DNA of 64,000 bases from contig OZ241841.1 in the NCBI GenBank assembly GCA_965202665.1, positions 608,001 through 672,000 of the forward strand, given 5' to 3'. A program made the translations under genes and the position numbers. Source of the DNA: Candidatus Spongiisociaceae bacterium. Lineage in GTDB: Bacteria; Actinomycetota; Acidimicrobiia; Spongiisociales; Spongiisociaceae. The notes beneath the pieces are model-generated. The model ran no database searches. It was given only the letters and a program-made list of their open reading frames with translations, and had not been told where the DNA came from. Positions 29,571 through 43,642 of this stretch are shown here, one piece after another. Within the stretch, counting starts at the first letter, position 1. Each line of letters begins with the position of its first letter.

Positions 29571-30637
29571 ATGATCGAAAATCTTAGGCCCGCCCGCCCG
29601 GCCGTTGCTGTTCTGCTGGTGTTGGCTGTTGTGGCTGTCGCTTGCGGTGAGCAGGAGGCTTCGTTGCCGATTGAGCCTGCTGGGCCCCGACCGGCTACCA
29701 GCACCACCACCGCCGAAGCCGCCCCCGAGGTGGTGGTGGAGGTTCCGACCGTCACCCCCCCGACTGAACCGGAGGCGGTGCTGGTGGCGGTTGAGGCGCC
29801 GCCCGCTACGACGGCCCCTGATCCGGATGTGGTGGTGACTACCCAGCCGGAGGCGGAGGAGGGGTTTGTGGTGATGAACACCTGGGTGGATGATCCCACG
29901 GTCACTGCGGAGGCTCCTACTACTACGTTGGCTCCTACGACGACTGCCGCTCCTACTACGACTACGACTGAGGCGGTGCCGGTTTCTACGATTGTGGTGG
30001 TTCCGGCTACGACTACGACGATGGCTCCGCCCACGTCTACGACCACTACGACTACTACGACTTTGGTTCCGGTTACGACTTCGACTACGGGTGCTCCTTC
30101 TACGACGGTGGTTCCGCCGATTCCTCGTGTGGGTGATGAGGGTGTGCCGGAGGTGAACGACCATGAGTCGAATGTTCGTCCGGTTGAGGTTGATTTGTCG
30201 TGGTTTCCGGAGATGAAGAATGTTATCACGTGGGAGGATTGGAACAGGGTTGATGAAGCGGCCACTCCTGAGTGGGACAGGTATGATAGTGGTAATTGCG
30301 CGCCGCGTAGGTGGTGGTCGTATCCTTTGACGATTCAGGTTGGTACGGTGATTGCAAACGCTCCGCTAGTTTCTTATTGCGATTTTACTCGTCCTCAGTC
30401 GTATGTGGTTACTCGTATGTATCCGTTGCCGGTTTGTGAAAATGAGGATCAGCGAGGGTGTTCGCACTCTACGAGTTATGAGGGGTTGGATCTGTGGCAG
30501 ATTGTGGTGTGTGGGTATACCTTTGGGGGTAGTATTGCTGATTTTGGTATTAGCTATCGTGCTGGGGCGTTGCGGCAGGATGATGGACGCTTTCGCGTGT
30601 TTACTAACTCGCTATATAGCCCGCGGGAGTGCAACAG

Positions 30638-30641
<4 letters not shown>
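29571..30641 (+). CDS. lipoprotein with a long Thr/Pro-rich linker and Cys-rich C-terminal domain
   Basis: Lipobox VAVAC-G, poly-Thr tracts, perfect SD TAAGGAGGT (29555-29563). Confidence 0.8.
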
Positions 30642-32443
<1,802 letters not shown>

Positions 32444-37079: not shown

Positions 37080-38351
37080 ATGGAACAGCCTACTGAAAAG
37101 GAAAACGAGGCACTGGCCCGAAAATTATATGCAGAGTGGGACGAGGGGCGCGGAACGTCCAAGAGCGAGCTGGAACGTCGATACTGGGGCGACGGGAGCT
37201 CCCACGGTAGAAGGTTCGACCGCTTCATCCACGATCATTTGGGTATCCAAACCGCAAAACGCTCAAAGCAAACCAACCGTATTGAAGAACTGGAGCGACA
37301 AGTACGTTCGTTAGGCTACCATCCTGTCGGAATAGAACCAACAACTGAGGAAATACACCTATTACAAAGCAGGGAGGCCTGTCTATCGGCTCTGCGAGTC
37401 TGGAATGATCCAACCTACTCCTTTCGAACTGGAGCGTTCTCCTTATTGTTTGTTACAGCATGGAACAACCTCGCCCTCGCGATGGCAATGCGCAAAGGGA
37501 TAGAATGGCGTGAGTTGGATAAAACTGGAGCACCTATCCTGATCGATGAAATGGAAAAGCCTCGCCGTACGGACGATTTGATCAATTCAATATTATCATC
37601 AGAACAATATAAAGGGTTAAAAGAAAATATAAAGTTTTGGATCAATCTCAGAAACTGTGTAGCACATCGCTATCTACCAGAATTGGACATACAAGTTATA
37701 CCGCAAGCCCAAGCAGGTCTGCTCAATTTCGAAACCACCATATCAAATCAATTTGGAAAAGAACATGGGCTTGCCGAAAAACTATCAGTTCCATTACATC
37801 TCTCCGGTTTTCGCGACCCCGACACTTATAAAAATTTCCAAAAATCTCAAGCCCGTCTCCCTTTGGATGTCCAATATCTTCTCAGTGGAGCAGAACGCTC
37901 TCCAGAATTGCTAACAGATGATACTTATGCATTAAGAGTATCTTTTATTCCTTATGTTCCCGCCTCAGGGACAAGTCCTGATGCTATAGCCCATTTTATA
38001 AAGCCCGGAGAAGTTCCTACTGAGTTAACCGAAGCTCTAACAGACTATATCGTTATATCTAAAATATCTCGTGCTCCTAGACCAAATCTAAGGCCTAGCG
38101 TCGTAGCAAATCAAGTGCGAAAACGTATTCCTTTTGGTTTCAATACTACAGATCATGCCAAAATCGCAAGATATCTAAAAATTCGACCAGAGAAAGGAGA
38201 ACCAGATAGATCTCTCGATGAAAATTTCTGCGAACATTCACCCTATGGCTATCTATATAACCAGAAATGGGTAAATCGAGTTGTAAAAGAAATATCAAAT
38301 GCCGAAGGTTACAAAAGAGCAATAGGAAGAGATCCTGTTCGTAAAAACTAA
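37080..38351 (+). CDS. DUF3644-type HEPN-domain protein (candidate defence/toxin RNase)
   Basis: SREA..AL..WNDP..FR..AF..L..AW, HEPN motif RNCVAH and QA.LLNFE; much AT-richer than the flanks. Confidence 0.72.
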   Translation: MEQPTEKENEALARKLYAEWDEGRGTSKSELERRYWGDGSSHGRRFDRFIHDHLGIQTAKRSKQTNRIEELERQVRSLGYHPVGIEPTTEEIHLLQSREACLSALRVWNDPTYSFRTGAFSLLFVTAWNNLALAMAMRKGIEWRELDKTGAPILIDEMEKPRRTDDLINSILSSEQYKGLKENIKFWINLRNCVAHRYLPELDIQVIPQAQAGLLNFETTISNQFGKEHGLAEKLSVPLHLSGFRDPDTYKNFQKSQARLPLDVQYLLSGAERSPELLTDDTYALRVSFIPYVPASGTSPDAIAHFIKPGEVPTELTEALTDYIVISKISRAPRPNLRPSVVANQVRKRIPFGFNTTDHAKIARYLKIRPEKGEPDRSLDENFCEHSPYGYLYNQKWVNRVVKEISNAEGYKRAIGRDPVRKN

Positions 38352-38798: not shown

Positions 38799-39953
38799 TT
38801 ACCCGGAATAGCCGCCGGGACGGGCGGGACCTGACAGGCGGCTGCGTTCGGCTTCGATGTCGCCCATCATCTGGCGGTGGGCGTCGGCGAATTTGGCCAC
38901 CCCTTCCCGTTCCAAAACTTCGGTCACATCGTCGAGATCCACCCCGGCTTCGGCCAGGGCGTCCAAAACGGCAGCCGCTTCGTTCATCTGTTCGATGTTC
39001 AGCACCGGGGGGCGGTCGGGGCCCGACTCCTGGTAGGAGGCGATGGTGGATTCGGGCATGGTGTTGACCGTGCACGGAGCGGCCAGGGAATCCACGTAGA
39101 GGGTGGGCGAATAAGCCGGGTTCTTGGTGGAAGTGGAGGCCCATAACGGGCGTTGCGCCCGCCCCCCGGCCGCCTGCAACGCCCGCCAGCGGTCGGAGGA
39201 GAACATCCGCAGGAACTCCAGATAGGCCACCCGGGCGTTGGCCACCGCCGCCCGGCCCCGCAGGCCCAGCGCCCTCTCCGAGCCGACGGCTTCCAGCCGG
39301 GCGTCGGTTTCGCTGTCCACCCGGGAAACGAAAAAGGAGGCCACCGACGCCACCCGGGACGGGTCGCCGCCCGTATCCCGCAACCGTTCCAAGCCGGACA
39401 GGTAAGCGTTCATCACCGCCCGGTAGCGGTCGCGGGAGAAAATGAGGGTCACATTGACCGACACCCCTTCCGCGGTCAGGGACTCGATGGCCCCCAACCC
39501 GGGCGCGGTGGCCGGGACTTTGATCAGCAGATTGGGACGGTCCACCCGTTTCACCCAATCCCGGGCCTCCTCGGCCGTCCCTTCGGCGTCGTCCGCCAAC
39601 TCCGGGGAAACCTCCACCGAAACGAACCCGTCCGCCCCGCCCGAACTTTCGAACACCGGGGCCAGGATGTCGCACGCCCCCCGGATGTCCTGCGTCACCA
39701 CCGCCGTGTAAATCTCCTCGGTGGAGGCCCCCCGGGCCGCCATTTCCCCCACTTGCCGGTCGTAGGAATCCCCCGCCCGCAACGCGGCCGCAAAAATGGA
39801 GGGATTGGAGGTGAGCCCGGTGACCGCGTTGCGTTCCATATGCGAGGCCAGGGCGCCGGAGGCCAGCATCTCCCGGGACAGGGAATCCAGCCACACCGAC
39901 TGCCCCACCGAAGCCAGGTTGTGAAGTTTGGATGTTTGGGTCTTAGGGGACAC
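38799..39953 (-). CDS. tal: transaldolase
   Basis: [26 protein letters not shown] and [10 protein letters not shown]. Confidence 0.95.
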
Positions 39954-40016
39954 TGAAACTCCCGTAGGTTGCGACGGCTCCCCATTCTACCCGGCGCGGC
40001 GCCCCCGCCGCCTGAG

Positions 40017-40730
40017 TTATCCCGTATCCGCAGGACCGGAAGACCCTTGTCGCAGCTTTTCCAACGGAAGAAACGCCAGCAGAAGAGTTTTGCGCCCCGC
40101 CCAATCGAAATCGATCATCACCTCAACGCCGAAACCGGTACCGCTGACACCGCAAACCTGCCCCTCCCCGAACTTTCCAAGGTTCACCCGATCCCCCACC
40201 TGCGGCATGTTCTTCCGCAGGTTGCGGAAAAACTTGGCCGCGCCCGGCACCGTCGCATCCTCCGCTCCCGTATCGAAGTCACCTGCTTCTGGGTTATCCA
40301 ATATCTCTATATCCAACCAGAGTCCCGCCAACGGCAAAACTGTGGGGCCGTTCGCCTCAAAATTGATCTCCACTGCCGCCTCACGGCCGGAGCCGCGGAA
40401 TTCAAACACCTCACCCACCCCGAACTTGTCGTGACGCACCCGCTCCCCAGCGAACAAAACCTCCCAATCTGGCGAAAACCTCTCCAACGGAGCCCATTTC
40501 AGCGACAAAAGCTTGGACCCTTTTTTATCAAAATCGACCACCGCTTCAGATTCACAGCCGGAGCCGCGAATGTCGCACACCTTCCCCACCCCGAACTGGT
40601 CGTGGCGCACCCATTCCCCCACCTGCAACTCATCCCCCCTCAATCTACGGCGGGGGCCACCCTCGTCCGACCGCTCGTCGCCGGCCTTGTCTTGGAACAC
40701 TGGAACTCCCGTAGTCAAACCTGCGCCCAC
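40017..40730 (-). CDS. protein of three tandem PcrA/UvrD C-terminal Tudor-like domains
   Basis: Three copies of G[DE]xVxHxxFGxGxV..G.G..(V)xF..G.K.L.L..L, directly alignable to the C-terminus of the adjacent PcrA. Start may be TTG 40718. Confidence 0.82.
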   Translation of the reverse strand: MGAGLTTGVPVFQDKAGDERSDEGGPRRRLRGDELQVGEWVRHDQFGVGKVCDIRGSGCESEAVVDFDKKGSKLLSLKWAPLERFSPDWEVLFAGERVRHDKFGVGEVFEFRGSGREAAVEINFEANGPTVLPLAGLWLDIEILDNPEAGDFDTGAEDATVPGAAKFFRNLRKNMPQVGDRVNLGKFGEGQVCGVSGTGFGVEVMIDFDWAGRKTLLLAFLPLEKLRQGSSGPADTG

Positions 40731-40764
40731 TCTACCGCCCCCCGCCCCCGCTTGGAGGGCCGGG

Positions 40765-43029
40765 TTACGCTTTTTGCAACGGGGCCCAGGCCAGGAGCAA
40801 AGTCTTGCGTCCCGCCTCGTCGAATTCGATCACCACCTCCGCCTGATTGCCGGAACCGTTCAGGCCGCGCACCCACCCGCCCCCGAACTTGTCGTGGCGC
40901 ACCCTATCCCCCACCTGCAACTCATCCCCCAGCAGGCTGCGGCGGGGGTCGCCCGCTCCCGGCGACGGACCCGCCCGTTCCCGACGGGCGTCCCGCGGGC
41001 GGGGGGCGGCCCGGGAAACCAAATTAACGGGAATCTCCTTCAGGAACCGGGACTCCGCGTTGTAATCAAAAGAACCGAACAGGGAGCGGGTGGAAGCCGA
41101 GGTCAGAAACAGGCAGCGGCGGGCGCGGGTCAAACCCACGTAGCACAGGCGGCGCTCCTCCTCCATCTCGTCGTAATCGGTCAGAGAGCGGTAGTGGGGG
41201 AACAGCCCCTCCTCCATGCCCACCATGAACACCACCGGAAACTCCAACCCTTTGGCGTTGTGCATGGTCATCAAAGTGATTTTGTCATCGGAGTCCAAAG
41301 AGTCGGTGTCGGCCGCCAGGCTGACCGACTCCAAATAGGCCCGCAGAAGCCCCCGCCCGTCCGCCTCCTCCGACTCCCCGCCCGGCGCCTCCCAGCCTTC
41401 CACCGCCTGCTCCCGTTGCTTGATGAAATCCCCCGCCCCGGCCGCCAGTTCCTCCAGGTTCTCAATCCGGCCCAAAGCCTCTTCGGTGCCCTGCTCGCGC
41501 AACATGGCCAGGTAGCCCCCTTCGTCCAGCACGGTTCGCACCAAGACGTCCGGGCCGCCGTCGATCCTTTCCTCCAGCAACCTCATCACCGCCAGGAAAT
41601 CGCGGATTCCGTTCGCCCCCCGGCCGTCCAGCCCCGGGATGTCGTCAACTTGGCGCAGGGCTTCCAACAGGGCCAGGCCGCGCCGGTCGGCGAACCGCTC
41701 CGCATGCCCCAGCGTTACCTCCCCTATCCCCCGGCGGGGGGTGTTCACCACCCGGCGCAACGACGGCGAATCCTCCGGGTTGACCAGCAGGCGCAGATAG
41801 GCCAAAACGTCTTTCACCTCGGCCCGCTCGTAGAAACGGACGGAGCCGATCACCCGGTAGGGCAGGCCGTAGCGGTTTATCACCTCCTCCAGCACCCGGG
41901 ACTGGGCGTTCATCCGGTAGAAAACGGCGATGTCCCCCAAGGCGGCCCCCCCGCTCCGCTCCAAATCGACGGCTTGGTCGGCCACGAACGCCGCCTCGTC
42001 GTGCTCGTCCTGGGCTTGGAAGCGGACAATCGGCGGGCCCTCCCCCAGGTCGCTCCACAGGCGCTTGGGTTGGCGGCGTTCGTTGTGGGCGATGACCGAA
42101 TTGGCGGCGGCGAGGATGGTCTGCGTGGAACGGTAATTCTGGTCCAGCACCACCACTTTGGCCTGCGGGAAGTCCCGCTGGAAAGAGTCTATGTTGCGGA
42201 TGTCGGCCCCCCGGAAGCGGTAGATGGACTGGTCGGCGTCCCCCACCGCGCACAGGTTGCCGTGCCGGGCGGCCAACAGCTTCACCAGCTGGTATTGGGC
42301 GTGATTGGTGTCTTGGAATTCGTCCACATGCAGGAAGCGGAACCGTTCCCGGTAGCGGTCCAGCACTTCGGGGATGGCTTCGAACAGGTTGACGGTGACC
42401 ATCAGCAGGTCGTCGAAATCCATGGCCGACGCCTCCGTCAGCCGTTGCTGGTAGAGGCGGTAGATTTCTGCGATTCCCTTGCGGTACAAGTCCCCGGCGT
42501 CCTCCGCTTGGACGGCGAACGACTCGAAGTCGACCAGTTCGTTTTTGGCGTTGGAGATGACCGCCCTGATGCGGCGGGGCGGGTAGCGCTTCTCTTCCAA
42601 GTTCAGTTCGCGGACGGCCCGTTGAATGGCCCGGCGGGAATCCAGTTCGTCGTAGATGGTGAAGGAAGGGTTGTATCCGAGGTGGCCGGCCTCCCGGCGC
42701 AGGATGCGCGTGCAAGCGGAATGGAAGGTGGACACCCACATATCCCGGGCCGCGCCGCCCACCAGCCGGGCAACCCGCTCCGCCATCTCGGCGGCCGCCT
42801 TGTTGGTGAAAGTGATGGCCAGTATCTCCCACGGTTCCGCCCCCAGGTCGCGGAGCAGGTGGGCCACCCGGTAGGTGAGCACCCGCGTCTTGCCCGACCC
42901 CGCCCCGGCCACCACCAGCAACGGCCCCTCCACGGCCGCCACCGCCTCCCGCTGGGCCGGGTTCAAATCGTCGAACAGCGGCGAAAGAGCCGGATCGGAA
43001 ACTTCAGGGGGCGCGGCCAATGTCGTCAT
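40765..43029 (-). CDS. pcrA: ATP-dependent DNA helicase PcrA/UvrD
   Basis: AGAGSGKT, TFTNKAA, VDEFQD, QNYRS, HNAKGLEF, EERRLCYVGLTRA and a C-terminal Tudor domain; leaderless ATG 43029. Confidence 0.95.
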   Translation of the reverse strand: MTTLAAPPEVSDPALSPLFDDLNPAQREAVAAVEGPLLVVAGAGSGKTRVLTYRVAHLLRDLGAEPWEILAITFTNKAAAEMAERVARLVGGAARDMWVSTFHSACTRILRREAGHLGYNPSFTIYDELDSRRAIQRAVRELNLEEKRYPPRRIRAVISNAKNELVDFESFAVQAEDAGDLYRKGIAEIYRLYQQRLTEASAMDFDDLLMVTVNLFEAIPEVLDRYRERFRFLHVDEFQDTNHAQYQLVKLLAARHGNLCAVGDADQSIYRFRGADIRNIDSFQRDFPQAKVVVLDQNYRSTQTILAAANSVIAHNERRQPKRLWSDLGEGPPIVRFQAQDEHDEAAFVADQAVDLERSGGAALGDIAVFYRMNAQSRVLEEVINRYGLPYRVIGSVRFYERAEVKDVLAYLRLLVNPEDSPSLRRVVNTPRRGIGEVTLGHAERFADRRGLALLEALRQVDDIPGLDGRGANGIRDFLAVMRLLEERIDGGPDVLVRTVLDEGGYLAMLREQGTEEALGRIENLEELAAGAGDFIKQREQAVEGWEAPGGESEEADGRGLLRAYLESVSLAADTDSLDSDDKITLMTMHNAKGLEFPVVFMVGMEEGLFPHYRSLTDYDEMEEERRLCYVGLTRARRCLFLTSASTRSLFGSFDYNAESRFLKEIPVNLVSRAAPRPRDARRERAGPSPGAGDPRRSLLGDELQVGDRVRHDKFGGGWVRGLNGSGNQAEVVIEFDEAGRKTLLLAWAPLQKA

Positions 43030-43101
43030 ACGCCCTACCCTACCACATCCCCCGGACGCAAAAATTACGCCGGTGTAATTCACCCCAAAAGACGACCTGG
43101 T

Positions 43102-43131
43102 TTGACATTTGGTTGCAGATTTGGTTATAGT
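43102..43131 (+). promoter_or_regulatory. sigma70/SigA-type promoter with ATTTGGTT direct repeats, leaderless
   Basis: TTGACA (43102-43107), 18-bp spacer, TATAGT (43126-43131), ATG 7 nt later. ATTTGGTT at 43107 and 43119. Confidence 0.75.
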
Positions 43132-43138
43132 AGCCGAT

Positions 43139-43642
43139 ATGGCGGATCACGAGGTCTACCCCAACGCCCCGCTCCGGCTGGTTGAAATGAGAACGAAGGA
43201 GCTTGCCAAAAACCCGCCTAAAGTACTTCTGAACCGGCTTGCTATGGAATATGGGATGTCTTGGTCTGGGATTGCCCAAGCTATTGGAGTTAGAGTACAA
43301 GCCATTCGTAAATGGCGACTTGGCGGCTCTGTTAACACGGAAAGTAGAGTCGCACTATCTAAGGTGGTATCTACATTGGATATTCTGCAAGAACTAATAG
43401 ATGACCCAGCAGGCTGGTTGGAGATGCCGGTATTGGAAGGATACAGCCTCCGTCATTTGGATTTGTTAGCACACAAAAATCACCAACTTCTCTTAGATTT
43501 AGCCTTTAAACTTATTACCCCAGAGGATGTATTACAAAGCACAAATCCTAACTGGAAGACCGAAATGTACCTTAAGCATGAGGTATTCACAGCAGAGGAT
43601 GGACTACCCGCTATCCGACGTGCGACGCAGAGTGTACGGTGA
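43139..43642 (+). CDS. Xre-type HTH / antitoxin-like protein with a TIGR04255-like N-terminal peptide
   Basis: HTH GMSWSGIAQAIGVRVQAIRKWRLG, DDPAGWLEMP and EVFTAEDG; starts MADHEVYPNAPL; AT-rich. Confidence 0.65.
   Translation: MADHEVYPNAPLRLVEMRTKELAKNPPKVLLNRLAMEYGMSWSGIAQAIGVRVQAIRKWRLGGSVNTESRVALSKVVSTLDILQELIDDPAGWLEMPVLEGYSLRHLDLLAHKNHQLLLDLAFKLITPEDVLQSTNPNWKTEMYLKHEVFTAEDGLPAIRRATQSVR

Follow-up and report, generated by a model that had tools for sequence, protein, structure and literature searches.

A gene for three PcrA-type Tudor domains without a helicase, found behind pcrA in a Candidatus Spongiisociaceae bacterium, with two divergent allele types among its strains and a sister lineage

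The Tudor domain of the PcrA helicase binds a TGE hairpin present both in UvrB and in the SI1 region of RpoB. On its own, the domain competes with PcrA both in vitro and in vivo, as reported in a study that also noted RpoBs without the docking motif (PMC8318588). An earlier study reports that mutation of each of the residues H681, W684, K712, and L714 of G. stearothermophilus PcrA abolishes binding (PMC5397179). For the mycobacterial homolog UvrD1, the Tudor domain is described as required for Ku binding (10.1101/2023.09.29.560180) and, in M. smegmatis, as dispensable for excision repair (PMC11975281). The stretch of DNA analyzed in this study (64,000 nucleotides from a Candidatus Spongiisociaceae bacterium, contig OZ241841.1 of assembly GCA_965202665.1, positions 608,001 to 672,000 of the forward strand; hereafter the window) contains a gene coding for three such domains immediately behind pcrA. 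The reading put forward here, held tentatively and with rather less than even confidence, is that of a lineage-specific product of tandem duplication that is selected in two old alleles and codes for a helicase-free multivalent Tudor protein competing with PcrA or bridging its partners.

The open frame at 40730-40017 (minus strand) is flanked by pcrA (40765-43083, minus strand) and the transaldolase gene tal (38799-39953, minus strand), and the locus contains the following features in the direction of transcription.

40765..43083, minus strand: pcrA/uvrD helicase gene, parent of the duplication, with Pfam UvrD-helicase, UvrD_C, and PF21196
43029, minus strand: ATG start of the pcrA database call, 754 aa, from an exact look-up
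40768..40923, minus strand: PcrA Tudor domain, binding-face H, F, K, and L intact
40729..40734, minus strand: TAGAGT, likely -10 box, with the counterpart TAGAAT before tal both here and in the sister species
40694..40714, minus strand: ribosome site GGGAG (40710-40706) and GTG start, copied from tal (19/21 nt identical to 39967-39947)
40017..40700, minus strand: triple-Tudor gene (P0017, 227 aa), type A allele
40476..40634, minus strand: Tudor copy 1, residues 23-75, the four binding-face residues kept in 19/19 members scored
40302..40460, minus strand: Tudor copy 2, residues 81-133, offset from copy 1 by 171 nt, with Thr for Lys in type A and Lys kept in type B
40206..40244, minus strand: predicted amphipathic helix, residues 153-165, aligned with the Pro/Gly linker of pcrA
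40053..40205, minus strand: Tudor copy 3, residues 166-216, with Leu for His in type A and His kept in type B
40161..40169, minus strand: G-rich run, site of independent frameshifts in two other strains
40017..40055, minus strand: C-terminal tail, without counterpart in the alleles of 212-221 aa, which end like PcrA
39953..39989, minus strand: tal start signals, namely TAGAAT (39989-39984) as -10 box, followed by the ribosome site and GTG
38799..39953, minus strand: transaldolase gene, downstream flank, Pfam TAL_FSA

A previous reading of the sequence alone (the sequence-only reading) had placed an ORF 35 bp behind pcrA, and a frame is indeed present there, although its start was reassigned to GTG 40700, 64 nt past the pcrA stop, giving a product of 227 aa and not 237. 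The start M-[FIL]-QD was found at this site in 33 of the 36 database members, with two members called 10 codons upstream and one being a fragment. The TAGAGT at 40734-40729, earlier proposed as -10 box of that ORF, overlaps GTG 40730; by homology with the tal signal it likely acts as a -10 box, and a consensus sigma-70 scan listed no promoter. The last 11 residues are likely a read-through into the old pcrA-tal spacer, and the GC3 of the gene was 0.68 vs 0.83-0.84 for pcrA and tal.

Domain analysis bore out the description of the ORF as three copies of the PcrA Tudor, since Pfam PF21196 matched three stretches with 92.9 bits (cut-off 23.9). Each copy matched PF21196 by sequence (E 6e-9 to 9e-4), the copies were 65-73% alike, and a six-frame family search of the genome gave four PF21196 matches, corresponding to pcrA and the three copies. 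No UvrD-helicase or UvrD_C match was obtained for the protein, TIGR01073 reached 76 bits vs a cut-off of 911, the CarD profile 18 bits vs 23, and DUF3553 25.8 bits in sum without any passing stretch, while PADLOC returned only matches of 16-25 bits to the last 20-50 positions of the TmtA and DpdF profiles. By domain, the protein is PF21196 and not a helicase or a known defense component, and it is probably not a CarD-like factor. The structure model displayed three beta-barrels matching 5DMA, 9DQS, and 7EGS (rmsd 1.6-3.1 A) at low confidence (pLDDT 57, pTM 0.39).

The binding-face positions, mapped by motif spacing and alignment with E. coli UvrD, were conserved as H/F/K/L in copy 1 (19/19 members scored) and in every copy of a second allele type, B, described below. 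The loss of Lys from copy 2 and of His from copy 3 noted by the sequence-only reading holds for type A, the type of the window, where Thr and Leu stand instead, and not for type B, which keeps both residues. Copy 1 is likely the working site in type A and type B likely has three intact sites, as judged from these residues. The predicted helix between copies 2 and 3 appears in the model to be a new element in place of the Pro/Gly linker of pcrA, and its residues G153, A154, K156, F157, L161, and M165 were invariant in 30/30 aligned members across 50% divergence. The Tudor of PcrA itself was almost invariant across strains (15/15 among the PcrAs listed, of 28).

The locus was compared with five of 16 listed sequencing runs. 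In X1, possibly the source sample, one Logan contig covered 38500-43300 with 0 differences, in X10 one contig spanned the gene, and in X3, X5, and X15 the gene was present behind pcrA, with runs of four other studies displaying strain differences. An assembly artifact would agree with the repeat-like layout and with nothing further, and is practically out of the question given that independent short-read contigs span (X1, X10) or carry (X3, X5, X15) the locus and that copies 65-73% alike are too diverged for it; no misassembly was found.

Local duplication of the 3' end of pcrA, as the sequence-only reading had proposed, is supported as the origin of the gene by a Phe common to the copies and the PcrA of the genus, by the duplicated tal promoter and start, and by the adjacency of pcrA and tal in the sister species. 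All copies carry Phe where 25/29 PcrA orthologs of relatives (including L015 from the unpublished genome G039) have Trp and the host genus has Phe. In the sister species (MAG G001 of Ca. Spongiisociaceae, the sole same-genus genome compared), only a short spacer, containing TAGAAT and GGGAG, separates pcrA from tal behind it, and this pcrA-tal spacer is present twice in the window. A block made of the pcrA end, the spacer, and the tal start would have been duplicated and the Tudor part probably multiplied afterwards. Copy 3 would then sit where pcrA originally ended, and the gene would be expressed either from the duplicated tal signals or by transcription continuing out of pcrA. The previously reported match of 40589-40638 with 40881-40930 was exact as described (47/50 nt identical); it does not date the birth of the gene because the remainder of copy 1 matches pcrA at 132/185 nt and the gene predates the lineage split, and this tract is best read as a later gene conversion.

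The gene has a narrow distribution. The pcrA domain stood alone, with no triple-Tudor gene, in 40/40 relatives and 28/28 genomes of the family (overlapping sets), and neither the sister species nor any of 300 other genomes of the class had the triple-Tudor gene; in those 300, PF21196 was matched once in 292 genomes, twice in three (one of them the unpublished G269), and not at all in five, compared with four matches in the host. HMMER against 1.84 billion representatives gave a single full-length match, itself a family member (E 1.5e-90), followed by matches from 1.5e-24, and this length-free search contained no longer or fused forms of the family; the search for shorter forms (30-116 aa) gave five matches, none belonging to the triple-Tudor family. 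The homologs on which the earlier proposal depended were recovered by word searches as 10 clusters with 36 members from strains of the host species and a sister lineage, and the habitat labels of the runs, where given, were sponge or marine metagenomes. The triple-Tudor gene was not found in JGI metagenome scans, viral contigs contained no relative of it, phages and plasmids gave merely two weak single-domain matches each, and the ESM Atlas held single-Tudor clusters only (at 0.90, with low recognition). The earlier statement that no family with this architecture had been described agrees with these results for the triple-Tudor family and with the open-access literature searched, and needs correction for P0058, P0059, and P0077, unrelated helicase-free proteins with two to three PF21196 stretches. 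Multi-Tudor proteins without a helicase arose independently elsewhere.

The family divides into type A (19 members, the window included) and type B (17 members), which are 49-61% identical, and each type divides into lineages 1 and 2 with between-lineage identities of 79% (A) and 75% (B), as measured on 30 of the 36 members. The leader sequence tracks lineage and the body tracks type; in the tree, A1 grouped with A2 and B1 with B2 (100/100), and lineage 1 as a clade was rejected (p-AU 1e-19). The PcrAs of A- and B-carrying strains were 96.6-99.3% identical (15 listed of 28), Tal was 97-99.7% identical within lineage 1 and 92-95% between lineages with a tree tracking lineage, and the lineage-2 PcrA fragments and the PcrA of G001 were 90% and 82.5% identical to that of the window, respectively. 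The gene context of A and B was established indirectly by pairing proteins on contigs of equal size, which joined six of the listed PcrAs (15 of 28) to an A1 protein and four to a B1 protein, the listed Tals (15 of 45) to A1 (2), B1 (4), A2 (2), and B2 (3), and two lineage-2 PcrA fragments to A2 proteins. Contigs of 6,077 and 10,169 nt carried pcrA, B, and tal together, no contig size was common to the 19 A and 17 B members, and the complete host genome held A only. From this pairing, A and B appear to share one pcrA-tal slot in both lineages and never to occur together.

The same two allele classes in sister lineages with flanks following lineage form a balanced-looking pattern of trans-lineage polymorphism, with reciprocal loss from an old A-B tandem as the alternative that gives an equal tree without balancing selection. 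A present-day arrangement with B behind A in tandem was rejected for now, as the contig sizes of the 19 A and 17 B members never coincide and the inserts of 790-998 nt behind the 216-aa alleles contained no piece aligning to the window at 80%. A donor cassette diversifying the PcrA tail was considered because the X10 and X15 contigs have, where pcrA ends, a piece for which 0 differences from copy 1 were listed; it is not claimed, with 15/15 of the listed PcrAs (of 28) retaining the ancestral tail.

Allele types this divergent amid nearly identical PcrA and Tal, present in two lineages, grouped in the tree by type and not by lineage, and numbering 19 A vs 17 B, would also suit a decoy that baits phage or mobile-element proteins grabbing the PcrA Tudor, in which A and B catch different proteins under frequency-dependent selection. 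PF21196-like stretches at the ends of several defense-type proteins point the same way, namely the weak matches to the C-termini of the PADLOC TmtA and DpdF profiles and the stretches in P0120, P0136, and P0179, with DruF-like, nuclease, and kinase domains. This account is unlikely, given a gene without effector domain between housekeeping genes, viral contigs without a relative, an open-access literature search that found no phage or element protein binding the PcrA Tudor, and the reciprocal loss described above, which would yield the same tree. The fuller version, an immune-like multivalent decoy derived from a housekeeping helicase with two specificity alleles held across a species boundary by balancing selection, is given little weight. 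A C-terminal SH3-type barrel has been predicted to recruit a helicase in the Tiamat preprint, the available text of which does not mention PcrA or Tudor (10.64898/2026.09.30.754977).

Strain comparisons argued for a maintained gene. At least 38 single-base differences were listed in the ORF among four strains, comprising 22 synonymous and 16 non-synonymous changes where 24% synonymous were expected (pN/pS 0.22, p 6e-6 against neutrality), with the caveat that gene conversion can import synonymous changes, and tal had 11 synonymous and five non-synonymous changes in the same comparison. In X10, 17 residue changes occurred among at most 37 base differences, corresponding to a pN/pS of about 0.35-0.4. 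Columns conserved in the 29 PcrA orthologs were retained at 60-86% vs 30-60% elsewhere in all 12 copy-by-group cells (p<0.05 in 9/12, first sequence), and gaps in the protein alignment were whole-codon at 8/8 distinct positions, partly by construction of the protein set. The triple-Tudor gene appears to be under purifying selection (pN/pS about 0.2-0.4), and this value below 1 speaks for maintenance over the neutral decay that the sequence-only reading had considered. The DNA divergence of the ORF was 3-8 times that of its flanks (4.8% vs 0.6-1.3% in X10). Survival of the open frame was set aside as weak proof of selection, given a neutral simulation in which, with identity falling to as little as 77%, the frame stayed stop-free in 10-41% of runs.

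That simulation also agrees with a weakly constrained by-product, in which a harmless duplication is repaired by conversion from pcrA and between alleles and decays slowly from copy 3. Independent frameshifts were identified in copy 3 of 2/19 type A sequences (+4 in X3 and -1 in X5; P0013 and P0010, with products of 193 aa), and the key-residue losses of type A, the low GC3, and conversion tracts at both gene ends, with a leader that follows lineage and not type, fit the same account. It is nonetheless improbable in view of the synonymous excess, the preferential retention of Tudor-conserved columns even in copy 2, which is the farthest from PcrA, a copy 1 as conserved between lineages within type A as PcrA is (91.5% vs 90%), and a new helix in which six residues stay invariant despite 50% divergence.

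The triple-Tudor protein would bind the partners of the Tudor of PcrA, of which UvrB with its TGE hairpin is the most likely and Ku a possible one, and would compete with PcrA for these partners or bridge them. The host UvrB reads VNPVTGEIV, with TGE present in 30/30 UvrB loci (one from G039), and Ku is encoded in the genome (TIGR02772). The published docking pattern had one match among 12,324 frames, in a protein that we take to be a ribonucleotide reductase, and no match in RpoB or RpoC of the host genome, while a relaxed pattern added UvrB. In the beta2/SI1 region of RpoB, TGE was found in 0/14 loci parsed (of 29 fetched), the segment being just 68 aa in the host. The host RpoB also has, within a late insertion, the sequence FDPQTGRPV, which comes near the motif, and a general NTGEIK turn in beta1.

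A decoy or adaptor acting on RNA polymerase, as the sequence-only reading proposed, has precedent in the binding of the domain to RNA polymerase in Bacillus and E. coli (7EGS) and in the R-loops raised by the free domain (PMC5397179 and PMC8318588), and could draw on the near-motif and turn of the host RpoB. It was weakened by the lack of the published pattern in RpoB and RpoC and of TGE in the beta2 segment (14/14 loci parsed, of 29 fetched), the segment that holds SI1 in Bacillus, next to a UvrB that has the hairpin; with motif-less RpoBs acknowledged in the same source (PMC8318588), the RNA polymerase version is decidedly unlikely. A multivalent protein that competes for or bridges UvrB, and perhaps Ku, is favored over it because UvrB keeps TGE, Ku is encoded, and RpoB is without the docking hairpin, and the free Tudor may be tolerated for this last reason. 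Since excision repair in M. smegmatis does not need the Tudor of UvrD1, competing for UvrB may matter little, and competition for a conserved host partner leaves the persistence of two alleles unexplained.

The locus offers a clean, datable new gene, put together from the domain of a core repair helicase and the promoter of its neighbor and followed by selection and two long-lived alleles, with a narrow reach that takes in two lineages within a single uncultured genus. If UvrB or Ku is bound, the protein would naturally regulate the sharing of PcrA among repair pathways, in an organism with an RNA polymerase that is without the usual docking site, and would be a handy probe for the purpose of the actinobacterial Tudor domain; if the alleles track parasites, the Tudor face of PcrA would be marked as a phage target.

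Among known systems, the Tudor domains of PcrA, UvrD, and UvrD1 (PF21196; 5DMA, 7EGS, 7EGT, 6YI2, and 9DQS) are alike in sequence, predicted fold, and the binding face of copy 1, and differ from the present protein in that three copies with their own start, no helicase, fast evolution, and two allelic types are found here together with an RpoB without docking motif. The engineered free PcrA CTD used in B. subtilis, a Tudor without helicase that keeps PcrA away from its partners (PMC8318588), is the working model for this protein, although it is artificial, has a single domain, and works via the SI1 hairpin of RpoB, which the host does not have. Reuse of the Tudor outside the helicase in Actinobacteria is known from the DinX-type Y-family polymerase with a DUF3553/PcrA-like Tudor tail, one domain fused to an enzyme (PMC6511836). 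Unrelated helicase-free multi-PF21196 proteins (P0058, P0059, P0077, P0060, P0120, P0065, P0103, P0136, and P0179) likewise have repeated PcrA-type Tudors, with similarity at the domain level only (best E 1.5e-24 vs 1.5e-90) and other domains in most of them. The triple Tudor of SETDB1 (PDB 6AU3), the top Foldseek match, also has three Tudor barrels in a row and serves as an analogy only, being a eukaryotic histone reader with a TM-score of 0.17-0.19 and an rmsd of about 19 A. The open-access literature searched contained no stand-alone triple PcrA-Tudor protein; the module is already known, and what is new is the triple-Tudor arrangement together with its two old alleles, the latter being the surprising part.

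The short spacer between the triple-Tudor gene and tal (window 39965-40056) differed between strains, being replaced by 998 nt in the contigs of sequencing runs X3 and X5 and by 790 nt in X15. At the other side of the gene, the pcrA end in X10 and X15 appeared in the contig comparison as identical to Tudor copy 1 over 68 nt (window 40881-40948). Yet a conversion of this kind was found in no PcrA protein among the matches listed.

A further ORF lay upstream of pcrA:

43109-43642, forward strand: HTH-like ORF

This ORF was a fusion of the first 25 residues from a TIGR04255 gene with the body of the following gene. Since both source genes were whole in the same-genus sister species G001 (locus L032, 3683-4498 and 3036-3728) and X10 was longer than the window by 505 bases at 43167-43182, the HTH-like ORF is read from these sequences as the remnant left by a deletion in a three-gene module. 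Two other features of the window were recorded:

37080-38351, forward strand: DUF3644 gene matching the PADLOC candidate PDC-S19 (E 1e-47)
29571-32443, forward strand: a pair of neighbouring ORFs, each opening with a signal-like start and carrying long repeats rich in Thr and Pro

The DUF3644 gene sits two genes below tal, and the G001 ORFs resembling it were inverted and split in two pieces. The second ORF of the repeat-rich pair ends in a poly-Gly run.

The sole strict match in the genome to the published PcrA-binding pattern lay in G000:C1:966794-970375 (reverse strand), presumably a ribonucleotide reductase. A near match to the helicase interaction motif (PMC8318588), FDPQTGRPV, occurred in a late RpoB insertion, around residue 985 in the rpoB reading frame (locus L111).

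Among database proteins carrying the PcrA-type Tudor (PF21196), P0064 and P0073 are PcrA/UvrD helicases that seem to have additional C-terminal Tudor copies of their own. Helicase-free repeats of 2 to about 8 copies were identified in proteins unrelated to the triple-Tudor family, namely P0058, P0059, P0060, P0065, P0077, P0103, P0120, P0136, and P0179, several of which were defence-like, and the TmtA and DpdF profiles likewise had a C-terminal stretch similar to the PcrA-type Tudor.
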